This document shows positions 6,808 through 13,709 of a stretch of DNA of 64,000 nt, piece after piece. Within the stretch, counting starts at the first letter, position 1. Each line of letters opens with the position of its first letter. Position numbers and translations under genes: made by a program. The notes under the pieces are model-generated. The model was not told the origin of the DNA. It worked only from the letters and a program-made list of their open reading frames with translations, and made no database searches. The stretch lies in NCBI RefSeq assembly GCF_050320075.1, contig NZ_CP190018.1, one strand, 5' to 3'. The DNA is from Escherichia coli (GTDB taxonomy: Bacteria > Pseudomonadota > Gammaproteobacteria > Enterobacterales > Enterobacteriaceae).

Positions 6808-8190
6808 TCAACCTGCCACACTCCCCCACACCAGTTGCCCTTTATGGAACGTCGCCGTTCTCGGCGAGATACGCGCCACCGCCTCGGCGGAACAGGAGGC
6901 GTCCACCAGCACAAAGCTGGCATCATCCTGCGCTTTGGGCCACACGCGCTCGCCTTTTTCGTTGAGCGGCAATACATCGCCAGTGGCTAAAAACAGCGAG
7001 CGGGAGAGGTTCTGTTCGTTAGGACGAATATAGAGCTGCGCGTACAGATTGGCTTTTTCCAGCATGTCGCCCAGGCCGTAAGGCGACCAGTGGTCGATAA
7101 CGCTGTCGGTGCCGGTCATCACTTTTACGCCTTTGTCGTGCAACTGTTTGAGCGGCATATGCAGCGTGCCAATCGGCACCGTCGAGGCGATAGAAATTTG
7201 CTGCGCCGCCATCCGGTGCGCCAGTTCATCTACCTGTTGCTCATTGAGCGTTGCCAGCGCAAAGGCGTGGCTGATGGTCAGCTTGCCCTTCAGTTGCGGC
7301 GTTTTCTCCACCGTTTCAACCATATAATTGATGGCTGCCACGCCTGCCGGAGTGGTTTCGTGCAGGTGAATATCAACGCCTTTGTCGTAGTCCAGCGCAA
7401 TCTGGAACATGGTGTCGAGGGATTTTTCCATCGCGCCATCAACACTGGTCGGGTCCAGCCCGCCGACGTAATGCGCCCCCGCCTGCATCGCTTCGCGCAT
7501 TAAGGGTTCTGATTTCGACAGCAGCAAACCGTGCTGCGGGAAGGCGACAATTTCACACTCGAAGCCCGCCTGACGTCGCGCCAGAACCGCCTGCAAATTT
7601 TGCAGATTTTTCAGGCCGGAAACCGGTTCGATATTGCAGTGGCTGCGGGAAATGGTAGTGCCTTTCGACTGCAATAAATCAATCAGTTTTTCCGCCCTTT
7701 CCTGAGTGTACGGTTGCAACTCCGGCAGCATTTTCTGCTCGAGTTTGATCATGTCCTGGATGGTGGTGCATGCCGGACGATTGAGCGAGCGCCACGGCCC
7801 GCCGTAGAAGGTTTTGTCGAGATGAATATGCATGTCGCGGGTGGTGGGCAGCATCAGCTTACCGCCAGCGTCATAGTGCGGCAGCGTGGCGTCCGGATGC
7901 TGATTGTTCTCGCGCAGTGCAACAATTTTGCCGTTCTGAATTTCCACAGTCTGGCGCGCCGTGCGGGTCTGCACCGCCACGCCATTTTCGTAGTCAAAAC
8001 CGGTTTCCAGCAACACGTTGTCGAGATAGTAGTGCGGGTCAGTGATTTTCATGGTGTTATTCGCGTCGCAGTGGGTTGTGCCAGAGACTGCCGCATGGGC
8101 GAGCGGCACAGAGGTACCAAACAGCGCGGCGGCGGTGACCATCTTACCGCTCTGGCTCAGAAACTCACGGCGGCTATTGCTTTCTTTCAT
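6808..8190 (-). CDS. yahJ: Metal-dependent amidohydrolase/deaminase with a Tat-type signal peptide (460 aa)
   Basis: HxH motif in TTRDMHIHLDKTFYGG. N-terminus MKESNSRREFLSQSGKMVTAAALFGTSVPLAHAA. Length and synteny match K-12 YahJ. Confidence 0.9.
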   Translation of the reverse strand: MKESNSRREFLSQSGKMVTAAALFGTSVPLAHAAVSGTTHCDANNTMKITDPHYYLDNVLLETGFDYENGVAVQTRTARQTVEIQNGKIVALRENNQHPDATLPHYDAGGKLMLPTTRDMHIHLDKTFYGGPWRSLNRPACTTIQDMIKLEQKMLPELQPYTQERAEKLIDLLQSKGTTISRSHCNIEPVSGLKNLQNLQAVLARRQAGFECEIVAFPQHGLLLSKSEPLMREAMQAGAHYVGGLDPTSVDGAMEKSLDTMFQIALDYDKGVDIHLHETTPAGVAAINYMVETVEKTPQLKGKLTISHAFALATLNEQQVDELAHRMAAQQISIASTVPIGTLHMPLKQLHDKGVKVMTGTDSVIDHWSPYGLGDMLEKANLYAQLYIRPNEQNLSRSLFLATGDVLPLNEKGERVWPKAQDDASFVLVDASCSAEAVARISPRTATFHKGQLVWGSVAG

Positions 8191-8199
8191 CTTACGTCC

Positions 8200-9150
8200 T
8201 TACGTTTTAATAATATGGGTGCCCGTTTCACCGCGCAGCGCCGCAAGCAGGCATTCCGGCGTGGTGATAATCACTTCTTTGCCGCCCTGTTCCAGGAACG
8301 TCAGGCTGGCGATGATTTTTGGCAACATGCTGCCAGGCGGAAAATGCCCTTCCTGCATATAGCGGGTCATGGTGGCAATATCCACCCGATCGAGCGCCTG
8401 CTGCTGCGGTTTGCCAAAGTGAATACACACTTTTTCGACGCCAGTGGTGATCACCAGAATGTCGGCGTGAATTTCACGGGCCAATAGCGCGGTAGAGAGA
8501 TCTTTGTCGATAACCGCGTCCACGCTTTGGTAATCCCCCGCTTCACTGCACACCACCGGAATTCCGCCACCGCCCGCGCCAATCACCACAAAGCCTTGTT
8601 GGATCAGCGCCTTAATGGCAGGTGCTTCTACAATACGTTGCGGTTCCGGCGAGGCGACCACGCGGCGATAGCCCCGTCCGGCATCTTCAACAAAACGCCA
8701 GTCAGGGTTTGCCTTTTGTAATTCGTCACGCTGGCTGTCACTAAAGAATGCGCCGATGGGCTTGGTGGGATGAGCAAAACCCGGATCGTTTTTATCCACT
8801 TCCACCTGAGTCACCACGGTGACGGCTTTTTTCTCGCCATGACGCGCCAGTCGGTTGTTCAGCGCCTGTTGGATCAAGTAGCCAATGCCGCCTTGCGTAT
8901 CCGCCACACAGTTCGCCAGCGGCGTTAAGGGCAGCCCTTCGCGCTCGTGGGCAATCTCCGCGCGGCGTAAATCCAAACCGACCTGCGGTCCGTTGCCGTG
9001 GGTCAGCACAATGTCGTAATCGGAAGCCAGCATTTCCAGCACCGTATCGGCGACGGCTTTCACCGCCTCCGCCTGATGCTCAATCGACTGGCTGGCGTTA
9101 TCTTTGATAATGCTGTTGCCACCAATGGCAACGACCACAAGTTCTTTCAT
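8200..9150 (-). CDS. yahI: Carbamate kinase-like protein (316 aa)
   Basis: MKELVVVAIGGNSII...THGNGPQVG are carbamate kinase/amino-acid kinase fold motifs. Start chosen at ATG 9150; the track's 355-aa extension has no homologous N-terminus. Confidence 0.9.
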   Translation of the reverse strand: MKELVVVAIGGNSIIKDNASQSIEHQAEAVKAVADTVLEMLASDYDIVLTHGNGPQVGLDLRRAEIAHEREGLPLTPLANCVADTQGGIGYLIQQALNNRLARHGEKKAVTVVTQVEVDKNDPGFAHPTKPIGAFFSDSQRDELQKANPDWRFVEDAGRGYRRVVASPEPQRIVEAPAIKALIQQGFVVIGAGGGGIPVVCSEAGDYQSVDAVIDKDLSTALLAREIHADILVITTGVEKVCIHFGKPQQQALDRVDIATMTRYMQEGHFPPGSMLPKIIASLTFLEQGGKEVIITTPECLLAALRGETGTHIIKT

Positions 9151-9245
9151 ATTGTTATGTCCGCTACAGAGGGTGATGGGGTTATGAGAGTGAGGTTGCC
9201 CCTCTCCCCAGAAGGAAGAAGGGATCGTAAGGTGCAGTTGGAGGG

Positions 9246-12211: not shown

Positions 12212-13064
12212 AATTCCCTCCGTAGGTTTGGCTCAGCGCACAACCATCGGCCATGCCATACAGCATGTCGCAGCCGGAACTGGAGCCAATATGTTTAATT
12301 TTTTCTATTGCCTGAGTTGCGTTCCCAGGGATGTCATAAATAATGTTATGAATAAAACGATGAATATCTTCCCGGCAGCGTTGTTGTAATGCGGCTTCCA
12401 GCGTTATGGCACTTAATAACGTGGTATTATTTCTGCCGCGTTGCAGACCGAGATAAAATTCCTCTTTGTATTTTTCCGCCGGATGCCCAGGAATAAATAA
12501 AATAAGCGCCAGACCTGTTAAATAATCGTCGGCTGATGGCGTAAGGCCAATCCCTAAGCCCATCATACTGGCGACCGCTGAGGCGATATTTTGTTTATCG
12601 TTTACGGCCTGAATAACTGCCCGTCGTTTAATATGTAATTCTTTATTTAACGCCTGATAAAACGGATTATCGCCGCAATAATTAAACAGGGTTTCATTTT
12701 CCCCCAGGTGCTGATGAATAATGTCATGCCACTGTTGCCAGGCGATAAGGTGAAAATTCACAGCGGTCATTTGCAAGGTTGGGGACAGCCAACGCCGACA
12801 ACGACTCATCTCTATATGAAGATGTTGACCAACCGTAATGCCTTGATCGTCAAACTGAACCTTATCACCATGCCGGAACAGACCATCAAAGTGAGTGAGT
12901 GCCAACCGACAACTGTTTGGCGCATTGTCGTACTCTTCACAAAGCAGCGTCAGCAACTGCTGGCGGGCCGGAAGTGCGATATTTACCGCTCTGGCAAAGA
13001 CCTGTTCAACCTGTCCTTGCCCCCGCTGCGCCAGAAAATCAGCATCCGCAGTTAGCGCCCACAC
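12201..13064 (-). CDS. yahE: DUF2877-family protein (YlbF paralogue), 287 aa
   Basis: Position and length match K-12 YahE. There is no recognisable catalytic motif. Confidence 0.8.
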   Translation of the reverse strand: MWALTADADFLAQRGQGQVEQVFARAVNIALPARQQLLTLLCEEYDNAPNSCRLALTHFDGLFRHGDKVQFDDQGITVGQHLHIEMSRCRRWLSPTLQMTAVNFHLIAWQQWHDIIHQHLGENETLFNYCGDNPFYQALNKELHIKRRAVIQAVNDKQNIASAVASMMGLGIGLTPSADDYLTGLALILFIPGHPAEKYKEEFYLGLQRGRNNTTLLSAITLEAALQQRCREDIHRFIHNIIYDIPGNATQAIEKIKHIGSSSGCDMLYGMADGCALSQTYGGNYVS

Positions 13065-13103
13065 ACACCGTCTTTCTGGTGTGTTGATAGCAAGCCTCCC
13101 GGT

Positions 13104-13709
13104 TTATGCACCTGCGGCCATCAGTAACTGCGCAATCTCTTCAAAGCCTCGTTCCCGCGCCAGTTCCAGCGGCGTTTTGCCATATTTATCCGTCATGTGC
13201 GGGCTGGCACCGTGTTCCAGCAATAACTGGACAATCGCCTGCTGTTTAATCCCGCCATCATTAAGCACAATTGCTTCCAGTAGCGGCGTCCAGCCAACAT
13301 GGTTGGTCTGGTTAACGTTAATCTCCGTATGCGCCAAAAGCTCTTTTACAATACTTAAATGGCCTTTTTCACAGGCAGGCGTCAGGCCGACACCGCCAAA
13401 ACGGGTGACGCAATTAAGATCGGGTTTAGCCGGTAAAATAATCCGTAACAGGGTTAAATCGCCGGTCAGGCAGCTAATTAAAAAAGGATTTGAACATATT
13501 TGATCTTGCTTATTAATATCTGCTCCGGCATCAATTAATGCCTGAACGCAAGCATATTGCTGATATAAACTTGCCAGCGTAATTGCCGTTTTCCCCTGAC
13601 GATCGCAGGTATTAATATCGACACCCAGCGCAAGGCAGGTTTTTACTTTATCGATATCACCCTGTTGCGCAGCCAATAAATAGTCGGCAGGTAGATTTTT
13701 TATAGTCAT
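13104..13709 (-). CDS. yahD: Ankyrin-repeat protein (201 aa)
   Basis: Repeated ankyrin consensus, for example GWTPLLEAIVLNDGG...VQLLLEHGASPHMTDKYGKTPLELARERGFEEIAQLLMAAGA. Confidence 0.9.
   Translation of the reverse strand: MTIKNLPADYLLAAQQGDIDKVKTCLALGVDINTCDRQGKTAITLASLYQQYACVQALIDAGADINKQDQICSNPFLISCLTGDLTLLRIILPAKPDLNCVTRFGGVGLTPACEKGHLSIVKELLAHTEINVNQTNHVGWTPLLEAIVLNDGGIKQQAIVQLLLEHGASPHMTDKYGKTPLELARERGFEEIAQLLMAAGA

Follow-up and report, generated by a model that had tools for sequence, protein, structure and literature searches.

The yahDEFGIJ genes of Escherichia coli as a candidate third lineage of AllFGH-type carbamoyltransferase with its own carbamate kinase

Introduction

Which compound could be broken down by the products of the yahDEFGIJ genes of Escherichia coli, and by what kind of enzyme? 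The question was raised by a stretch of 64,000 nucleotides (nt) from contig NZ_CP190018.1 (assembly GCF_050320075.1), called the window here, in which these six genes lie close together beside the regulator gene yahB. An original prediction, made from the sequence alone, took them for an ATP-yielding route in which YahJ would open or deaminate a ring, YahE, YahF and YahG would transfer a carbamoyl group, and YahI would harvest carbamoyl phosphate. It stated that the substrate was not known, and none is on record today: yahC, yahE, yahG, yahH, yahI and yahJ are still listed as an uncharacterised cluster in the 2024 survey of the E. coli y-ome, and no report of a function for yahD-J or YahB was found in the literature searched.

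AllFGH was identified in 2024 as the oxamic transcarbamylase of E. coli, with all three genes needed and the recombinant proteins active (PMC11326118), and YbcF, now AllK, was shown by experiment to be a catabolic carbamate kinase (PMC9843812). The yah genes go unmentioned in the former study (PMC11326118). With somewhat better than even confidence, we favour the reading that yahDEFGIJ form one operon and encode a third, separately conserved lineage of AllFGH-type carbamoyltransferase, which has its own carbamate kinase and would act on an imported acylurea.

Similarity to the AllFGH/AllK system

Pfam matches agreed with the predicted domains of all six proteins. YahD gave Ank_2/Ank_4 matches at 8.8e-27, and YahE matched PF11392 (former DUF2877, now 'AllH') with 99 bits. 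CoA_binding and Ligase_CoA domains were found in YahF, which scored 490 bits with the FdrA subfamily model NF004760 (cutoff 433) and matched PDB entry 3dmy at 5e-82. YahG matched PF06545 (former DUF1116, now 'AllG') at 4.5e-89 with 298 bits, and PDB entry 3clq at 2e-195. YahI was an AA_kinase/carbamate kinase protein with the carbamate-kinase motifs GGN and HGNGPQVG, and reached 642.9 bits with the subfamily model NF009007 (cutoff 266). The motifs picked out earlier (GPDCGTAII, GASGTGSQE, GGNSI, THGNGPQVG and HxH, the last as MHIH) were all present in the translations. Three adjacent genes, yahE-yahF-yahG, therefore represent PF11392, the FdrA subfamily and PF06545, and a carbamate-kinase gene, yahI, adjoins them 95 nt downstream of yahG.

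When the proteins were compared by BLASTP with those of the K-12 all locus, YahG was 45% identical to AllG (E 2e-119), YahF 38% to AllF (2e-101), YahI 38% to AllK (2e-57) and YahE 25% to AllH (2e-10), so the paralogy predicted between the E/F/G/I quartet and ylbF/fdrA/ylbE/ybcF holds for each pair. The tie that the original prediction drew from the latter set to a route from oxamate through carbamoyl phosphate to ATP agrees with the experiments on AllFGH and AllK (PMC11326118, PMC9843812). The core interpretation of the original prediction is sound and is now largely mirrored in databases, where newer RefSeq records label YahE 'oxamate carbamoyltransferase subunit AllH family protein'.

A separate Yah-type lineage

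About 95 loci were compared in total. In a scan of one genome per species, at least 557 species had a Yah-type G protein, and 80 loci were kept. YahG homologues with 75-89% identity were found in Aeromonas, Janthinobacterium, many Enterobacterales, Brevibacillus, Paenibacillus, Sporosarcina and Psychrobacillus; the Yah-type lineage thereby extends over Proteobacteria and Bacillales. The pairwise matrix separated three clades. Among E. coli, Brevibacillus and Janthinobacterium, the Yah-type proteins were 77-79% (G) and 68-72% (F) identical; G of the All-type clade was 59% identical between K-12 and Enterococcus gilvus; and G of a third, plasmid-borne clade was 79% identical within that clade. 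Between the three clades identity was 42-48% for G and 36-43% for F. Because F and G are far more alike within the Yah type than between clades, a distinct and strongly constrained specificity of the Yah enzymes is indicated. The E/H protein showed 23-35% identity in every pairwise comparison.

The gene contexts differ as well. Allantoin genes adjoin none of the roughly 90 Yah-type loci, and allD, allC, allE and allB are linked neither to the window genes nor to any other Yah-type locus, whereas the All-type clusters of K-12 and Enterococcus gilvus have this linkage. F and G are found together with a carbamate-kinase gene at nearly all Yah-type loci, Sporosarcina (L094) being an exception, and in each of the other cassettes seen.

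The boundary between the F and G proteins has moved between lineages. YahG residues 8-52 align with the very C-terminal end of both the FdrA profile and AllF, and the N-terminal segment LNVINVGIAMFSDDLKKQHVEVTQLDWTPPGQGN of YahG is the counterpart of the C-terminal segment VAVINIGLRSFALELQSASKPVVHYQWSPVAGGN of AllF, as also holds for the Enterococcus AllF. About 45 residues at the start of YahG and about 45 at the end of AllF are homologous, so that one peptide sits on either side of the F/G boundary according to lineage. This is expected of two chains working as one and supports an F-G complex. A complex of YahE, YahF and YahG had been proposed from the gene overlaps; the F-G part is backed by the boundary shift and by the conservation of those overlaps, while YahE is the loosest partner, evolves fast, and is absent from about 25 loci.

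In a separate observation, Enterobacteriaceae bacterium G50 (L008) was compared with window 6808-14464: YahF, YahG, YahI and YahJ were 97-99% identical, YahD 73%, YahE 58% and YahC 73%. This mosaic pattern suggests recombination, with the breakpoint lying between yahE and yahF.

The clade structure also bears on the alternative that YahDEFG is a second oxamic transcarbamylase, serving exogenous oxalurate or precursors such as parabanate instead of the allantoin-derived compound, which we consider rather unlikely. The 38% and 45% identity of YahF and YahG to AllF and AllG would suit it, as would the resemblance of YahB to AllS, that of the Brevibacillus NCS1 permease to allantoin permeases, and the PucR-type purine-catabolism regulators that flank the Bacillales clusters. 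Moreover, an allFGH triple mutant regained 7% of oxamate formation with allFG alone and 16% with allGH alone (PMC11326118, Table 3), and this could be cross-complementation by YahE or YahF, a suggestion of the present analysis and not of that study. Yet K-12 allF or allG mutants with intact yahEFG formed zero oxamate from allantoin (PMC11326118), a result that non-induction of the yah genes could explain. At no locus is the Yah lineage linked to allD, allC or allE; it has a constant ankyrin partner and usually a deaminase that oxalurate would not need, and its conservation is far higher within the lineage than between lineages. A specificity of its own for the Yah-type lineage is therefore preferred.

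Operon structure in the window

As predicted, the six genes are co-directional and tightly packed; all six open reading frames (ORFs) are intact on the minus strand within 6808-13709 (Table 1). The junctions, read from the sequence, are a 39-nt gap for yahD/yahE, an 11-nt overlap for yahE/yahF (ATGTCAGTTAA), a TGATG with 1-nt overlap for yahF/yahG, with a strong Shine-Dalgarno-like AAGGGGAGGAAG just before it, and gaps of 95 nt for yahG/yahI and 9 nt for yahI/yahJ; the E/F, F/G and I/J junctions are those described earlier. The start of yahI was taken as the ATG at 9150, while the ORF listing runs to a GTG at 9267. A terminator scan detected no intrinsic-terminator-like sites on the coding strand within the yahD-yahJ block. 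The promoter/terminator scan gave fewer sites than shuffled sequence predicts, and the lack of internal terminators was its sole useful outcome.

Several E. coli chromosomes match the block at 100% identity, and of 5426 complete E. coli genomes 4998 contain 80% or more of it. The same gene order was found in the 80 species-level loci, the co-occurrence across Enterobacterales that the original prediction proposed to check, and because of this recurrence the arrangement is not due to chance. The overlaps recur too, with 11-41 nt between E and F in 55 of 56 loci and 1-10 nt between F and G in 78 of 83.

Table 1. Coordinates of the yah genes and associated features in the window
Feature	Position	Strand	Description
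yahD	13104-13709	minus	201-aa ankyrin-repeat protein; first gene of the operon
yahE	12201-13064	minus	287 aa, GTG start; AllH family (former DUF2877)
yahF	10664-12211	minus	515 aa; AllF/FdrA family
yahG	9246-10664	minus	472 aa; AllG family (former DUF1116)
yahG-yahI spacer	9151-9245	minus	95 nt; site of a membrane-protein (putative permease) gene in other genera
yahI	8200-9150	minus	316 aa; carbamate-kinase family
yahJ	6808-8190	minus	460 aa; amidohydrolase superfamily, AtzC/CodA branch
Predicted Tat signal peptide of YahJ	8092-8190	minus	MKESNSRREFLSQSGKMVTAAALFGTSVPLAHA; from translation
Palindrome, candidate YahB operator	13813-13833		TTGTTGAA-N5-TTCAACAA; yahC/yahD intergenic region
yahC	13967-14464	plus	165-aa DUF1097 membrane protein; divergent from yahD
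yahB	14556-15488	plus	310-aa LysR-type regulator

Conserved gene set of Yah-type loci

The usual layout in Enterobacterales and Aeromonas is yahB (divergent), followed by yahD-yahE-yahF-yahG, a gene for a membrane protein of 517 residues (aa), yahI and yahJ. A YahD homologue with ankyrin repeats, or with ankyrin and tetratricopeptide (TPR) repeats, was present in every Yah-type locus examined with 33-71% identity, only a 95-aa remnant being left in Paenibacillus. A 201-202-aa ankyrin gene precedes the E homologue in Janthinobacterium, Aeromonas and Brevibacillus; in Sporosarcina, Psychrobacillus and a metagenomic organism the protein is of the ankyrin+TPR form, and its ankyrin region can be aligned over the full length of YahD with 33-35% identity. 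No ankyrin protein is encoded in the All-type and plasmid-type cassettes. By this distribution, YahD is a conserved core component and not a passenger.

Between yahG and yahI, the gene for the 517-aa polytopic membrane protein was identified in about 65 of 80 related loci. The protein has 11-12 hydrophobic segments and is 65-83% identical from Aeromonas to Psychrobacillus. Its assignment as an NCS2 permease found no support: the profile-profile probability against two NCS2 permeases was 0.1%. In Bacillales loci an NCS1 permease, most like allantoin permeases, is encoded, and Psychrobacillus has both the NCS1 and the 517-aa types.

The 517-aa gene is replaced by a short spacer in 13 loci, from E. 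coli, E. albertii, Kluyvera, Citrobacter amalonaticus, Raoultella and a Klebsiella species. In exactly these 13 loci yahC, which encodes a DUF1097 protein (PF06496 at 2.6e-26), adjoins the operon between yahB and yahD. The presence of yahC and the absence of the 517-aa gene are probably one evolutionary event, and a functional link between them is offered only as a lead.

A second, complete Yah-type cluster was observed on the E. coli IncF plasmid pAMSC2 (L089:1854-8970) and about 64 similar plasmid records, where yahD-E-F-G, the 517-aa gene and yahI are present, G is 90% identical, yahB is broken and yahJ is absent. The plasmids are conjugative. Some E. coli strains thus have a permease-containing Yah version in trans. 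The RefSeq label 'xanthine permease' for the 517-aa protein of pAMSC2 was unsupported by the profile tests, and the protein can be called a polytopic membrane protein only.

YahJ and the recurring deaminases

YahJ scored 713 bits with the generic model NF005312 (cutoff 447), and 66-101 bits, far below the cutoffs of 403-483, with the cytosine-deaminase models of NCBIfam. Its closest PDB entries were the AtzC-annotated 6nbo (3.9e-43) and AtzC itself (2qt3, 2.4e-30), followed by CodA (about 1e-15). The HxH, HxH, SHA and (S/T)D columns of YahJ align with the metal ligands of the mononuclear site of AtzC. As the ligand columns align while the cytosine-deaminase models stay far below cutoff, YahJ is placed in the AtzC/CodA branch without being the equivalent of either CodA or AtzC.

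The N-terminus of YahJ (SRREFL...PLAHA) has the S/T-R-R-x-F-L motif, hydrophobic stretch and AxA site of a twin-arginine translocation (Tat) signal. The [ST]RRxF[LI] motif was conserved in 61 of 75 YahJ orthologues and in a metagenomic homologue of 53% identity, and the signal peptide was listed as a predicted Tat substrate in a study of extraintestinal pathogenic E. coli (ExPEC; PMC7549933). YahJ is thus most likely periplasmic, and if it catalyses the first step, that step would take place in the periplasm. The earlier suggestion that YahJ opens or deaminates a ring has to be narrowed: the mononuclear AtzC/CodA type makes a deaminase likelier and a ring opener less likely, and the Tat signal had been missed.

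In Bacillales loci the place of YahJ is taken by a 150-aa enzyme of CDA fold, closest to the guanine deaminase of B. subtilis (1.5e-31), beside the NCS1 permease. Because two unrelated deaminase folds share one context, deamination of an amino-substituted heterocycle seems to be part of the pathway. No deaminase is encoded in the Janthinobacterium and Aeromonas allosaccharophila loci, so the deaminated compound is presumably the direct substrate.

Related cassettes and likely chemistry

Other cassettes combine the same enzymes with different hydrolases. On conjugative plasmids of Klebsiella and other Enterobacteriaceae the order is AtzD/barbiturase-family ring-opening amidohydrolase-NCS2 permease-DUF2877-fdrA-DUF1116-arcC; E. 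coli pSCZP1 and the BEN2908 chromosome (GR29) carry isochorismatase-type hydrolase-DUF2877-fdrA-DUF1116-arcC-NCS1 permease-LysR; and Enterococcus gilvus carries allD-allC-allE-allD-fdrA-DUF1116-DUF2877-arcC. One instance of the AtzD/barbiturase-type cassette, with NCS2 permease, DUF2877, fdrA, DUF1116 and kinase genes, was seen on K. pneumoniae plasmid p19-10_02 (L090:2737-10378). This type of cassette is widespread on Enterobacteriaceae plasmids and may be an ATP-yielding route for cyanurate or barbiturate.

Barbiturase produces ureidomalonate and cyanuric acid hydrolase produces carboxybiuret, both of which are N-acylureas like oxalurate. The F/G(/H) enzymes may accordingly be acylurea:phosphate carbamoyltransferases, each cassette being tuned to the one acylurea that is supplied by its own hydrolase and permease. 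An acylurea/imide motif would likewise arise when a ring acylguanidine (guanine or ammelide type) or an amidine (cytosine) is deaminated.

Regulation

Among 55 LysR models, YahB was best matched by AllS, with 268 bits against a cutoff of 372, and then by PunR; judged by these scores it is a paralogue of AllS and not AllS itself. The yahB gene adjoins yahD in divergent orientation in nearly all Enterobacterales and Aeromonas loci. A palindrome that fits the T-N11-A box of LysR regulators lies 104-124 nt upstream of the yahD start codon, and it has one perfect match in the window, where 0.01 would be expected. Copies with at most 2 mismatches over 12 core positions were present upstream of yahD in 75 of 83 loci, compared with 2.9% of random 300-nt windows; they lie about 118-133 nt upstream of yahD in many loci and up to about 295 nt in others. 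YahB may bind this palindrome. No riboswitch or other known RNA was matched by Rfam in window 6000-16000 or in the upstream regions of seven other loci.

Proposed pathway

On the observed gene structure, paralogy, synteny, Tat motif, purifying selection (described below), permease-gene loss and linkage to atzC, a pathway could be built in which we infer what each Yah protein catalyses, in which sequence the steps run, where YahJ acts, what kind of compound the substrate is, and that the role is catabolic and yields ATP. In the periplasm, an amino- or imino-substituted N-heterocycle or a ureide precursor would first be deaminated by YahJ, a reaction that the guanine-deaminase-like enzyme would perform in the cytoplasm of Bacillales. 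The N-acylurea (imide) motif would arise through this deamination. The product would then be imported, by the 517-aa membrane protein or the NCS1 permease in most genera and by another carrier in E. coli, possibly YahC or a housekeeping nucleobase permease. YahF and YahG, helped by two accessory subunits, YahE and the ankyrin protein YahD, would phosphorolyse the carbamoyl group to carbamoyl phosphate, from which YahI would produce ATP, NH3 and CO2 with ADP. The AllS-like YahB probably controls the operon through the palindrome upstream of yahD.

The substrate is probably a nucleobase-derived ureide used for ATP. The ATP-yielding route originally predicted is favoured by the paralogy and the kinase linkage; the role of YahJ had to be revised, and YahD as a core component and the loss of the permease had been overlooked, as had the regulator YahB with its likely operator, which lie outside the coordinates of the prediction.

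A bolder version, to which we give only a small chance, would make the Yah set a phylum-spanning, ankyrin-containing energy module. An acylguanidine heterocycle, perhaps an oxidised-guanine product, an ammelide-like triazine or a creatinine/hydantoin-like compound, would be deaminated to an acylurea, imported by a permease of a new family and phosphorolysed by YahDEFG, possibly with ring opening; a specialised kinase would harvest ATP, and atzC would have been captured from such an operon.

Points against the pathway and maintenance of the E. coli operon

Several findings weigh against the pathway. No obvious ring-opening enzyme is encoded in the yah cluster, which is the main weakness should the substrate be a ring: a ring released by YahJ would then need to open by itself or through YahDEFG, unless the true substrate is linear. 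YahI scored just under the cutoff of the arcC equivalog model TIGR00746 (345.1 against 358.25). The 517-aa protein has no Pfam or NCBIfam match and was not placed in any transporter family. Its gene was lost in the E. coli lineage, and no remnant of it, or of a CDA deaminase, was found in the window. E. coli strains are polymorphic at the yahG-yahI spacer, which has its short form of 95 nt in the window and in most genomes contains an insertion of about 50-420 nt, annotated as yahH and described as a repetitive extragenic palindromic (REP)/bacterial interspersed mosaic element (BIME) sequence. Finally, the nearest natural homologues of AtzC (60-75% identity) adjoin AtzD/TrzD ring-opening amidohydrolases and NCS1/NCS2 permeases, not F, G and kinase genes.

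The distribution of yahE also counts here. It is absent from about 25 otherwise intact loci of Enterobacter, Lelliottia, Leclercia, related loci and Aeromonas cavernicola, where yahD is followed by yahF after about 105-290 nt, and a hidden Markov model search of all ORFs in these loci gave no AllH-like protein. Because AllH is needed in the All system, the subunit model derived from AllFGH may not transfer to the Yah proteins; in the Enterobacter-group species an AllH-type subunit is therefore either dispensable or supplied from elsewhere. The AlphaFold model of YahE, which is confident, has a beta domain and a helical bundle with no informative PDB neighbour. In the Enterobacter-group loci L033, L034, L037 and others, a GC-rich hairpin (GGCCAGCC...GGCTGGCC) was observed between yahD and yahF at about 8300-8460, with no yahE.

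Loss of the permease also raises the question whether the E. coli operon is still maintained. The ratio of nonsynonymous to synonymous substitution rates (dN/dS) was compared inside the permease-less lineage, between E. coli and E. albertii, Kluyvera, C. amalonaticus and Raoultella. It was 0.02-0.03 for yahG, 0.03-0.06 for yahI, 0.05-0.07 for yahJ, 0.07-0.09 for yahF, 0.06-0.13 for yahD and 0.18-0.28, the highest, for yahE. With values of 0.02-0.28 in this lineage, the yah genes stayed under selection after the permease gene was lost. Ribosome footprints were reported in the yahG-yahI gap of enterohaemorrhagic E. coli (EHEC), the ExPEC study, which used a mouse infection model, gave a competitive index of 0.70 (p = 0.02) for a yahJ deletion (PMC7549933), and a yahD-yahE-yahF fragment was enriched 17-fold in an over-expression screen for filamentation in uropathogenic E. 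coli. The original prediction knew of no phenotype; weak ones thus exist in the yahJ competition and the filamentation screen, and its statement on the substrate stands.

By these data it is improbable that the E. coli operon is a decaying remnant persisting by inertia. The 517-aa gene that has gone without trace, the polymorphic spacer with its REP/BIME insertion in most strains, and genes that are still listed as uncharacterised, with weak recorded phenotypes, would be expected of a remnant; the low dN/dS of all six genes, the retention of the block in 4998 of 5426 complete genomes, the EHEC ribosome footprints and the competitive defect of the yahJ mutant would not. We thus continue to regard the proposed carbamoyltransferase operon as maintained in E. 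coli.

Linkage to atzC on atrazine plasmids

A search of plasmid proteins identified a Yah-type G fragment, a carbamate-kinase gene and atzC, in that order, on the pADP-1-sized plasmid NZ_KP289281.1 of Pseudomonas sp. EGD-AKN5 (L087:7001-9488) and on pADNL1 of Paenarthrobacter ureafaciens (L088:7001-9782). The two G fragments match YahG residues 304-371 at 69% identity and 304-470 at 59%, the kinase is 47% identical to YahI, and AtzC has no signal peptide. The arrangement on these two unrelated plasmids is the order yahG-yahI-yahJ, so atzC and a piece of a yah-like cluster were apparently captured jointly. The neighbourhoods of the nearest AtzC homologues contained no intact donor cluster, and no mention of atzC together with a carbamate kinase was found in the literature searched.

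In two metagenomic loci (L098:6283-13000 and L099:1-4381), the closest natural relatives of AtzC (61-66% identity) were observed beside another amidohydrolase, a ring-opening amidohydrolase of the AtzD/TrzD type and NCS1/NCS2 permeases. The gene content of these clusters suggests a natural pathway whose substrate is an amino-substituted triazine or pyrimidine.

Should the proposed reading be true, six y-genes of E. coli would gain a testable function, and a second use would be given to a type of transcarbamylase identified only in 2024. It would suggest that the FdrA/DUF1116 enzymes are a general acylurea phosphorylase family, by which ATP is obtained from breakdown products of nucleobases. 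The order yahG remnant-carbamate kinase-atzC would be a clue to the natural origin of an atrazine-degradation gene. Comparative clues to the substrate are given by the conserved ankyrin subunit, the lost permease, the probably periplasmic, AtzC-like putative deaminase and the AllS-like regulator with its candidate operator.

Neighbouring features of the window

At 3416-5940 (compare L002:5609-8042), a gene for a sugar/autoinducer-2-type ATP-binding cassette (ABC) substrate-binding protein is split by an IS150-family element (transposase ORF 5025-5630); the split gene lies downstream of an ABC transporter operon at 919-4210. Downstream of yahJ, at a distance of 264 nt, lies an ASCH-domain gene (6100-6543); it has a promoter-like site of its own (TTGCTA-18-TATAAT at 6736-6707) and is probably outside the yah operon.

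Comparison with known systems

YahF has the CoA-binding Rossmann and flavodoxin-like ligase domains of succinyl-CoA synthetase alpha chains and of acyl-CoA synthetases that form nucleoside diphosphates (NDP-forming), which it matches at 1e-17 to 1e-7. It is very unlikely, all the same, that YahF with YahG and YahE is such a ligase, as its domains, its RefSeq product name and the legacy label 'acyl-CoA synthetase FdrA' would have it, given that its characterised paralogue AllF belongs to a proven transcarbamylase, that carbamate-kinase linkage is near-universal and that no beta (ATP-grasp) subunit is encoded nearby. That reading was rejected on the phmmer alignment, in which the phosphohistidine segment GHAGA ('mgHagaii' of 2yv2) falls in a gap of YahF, so that the loop is missing at the aligned position.

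AtzC and CodA are the closest solved relatives of YahJ, and their metal-ligand columns align with it; unlike AtzC, to which it is 29% identical, YahJ carries a Tat signal, and its N-terminus is longer by about 55 residues.

In the arginine and agmatine deiminase pathways, a ureido group is formed by hydrolytic deimination and then phosphorolysed to carbamoyl phosphate, which carbamate kinase uses to make ATP; a dedicated transporter is encoded alongside. The Yah set would follow the same logic of deaminase, transcarbamylase, carbamate kinase and transporter. However, the Yah transferase does not have the fold of ornithine or aspartate transcarbamylase (OTCase/ATCase), an AtzC/CodA- or CDA-type enzyme would act as the deaminase, apparently in the periplasm of Gram-negative bacteria, and the leaving group would presumably be an amide-type nitrogen, as in oxalurate, instead of an amine.

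The plasmid-type cassettes resemble the Yah loci in having a permease, a hydrolase, the H/F/G proteins, a carbamate kinase and a LysR regulator, in the order H-F-G-K. They belong to another clade (46-48% identical to YahG, 79% mutually), lack the ankyrin protein and have another accessory hydrolase.

With AllFGH/AllK of E. coli, the Yah system shares three protein families and a carbamate kinase, tightly coupled genes, an adjoining AllS-like LysR regulator and, presumably, a reaction of acylurea and phosphate to carbamoyl phosphate and an amide. It differs in gene order, E(H)-F-G-...-I in yah and F-G-H-K in all; in the addition of a conserved ankyrin protein, a permease and a deaminase; in never adjoining allD, allC or allE; in an identity of only 25-45%, with separate conservation of the Yah lineage across phyla; and in the peptide of about 45 residues that stands at the end of AllF and at the start of YahG. 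The Yah system is thus best regarded as an AllFGH/AllK-like variant that has conserved parts of its own.

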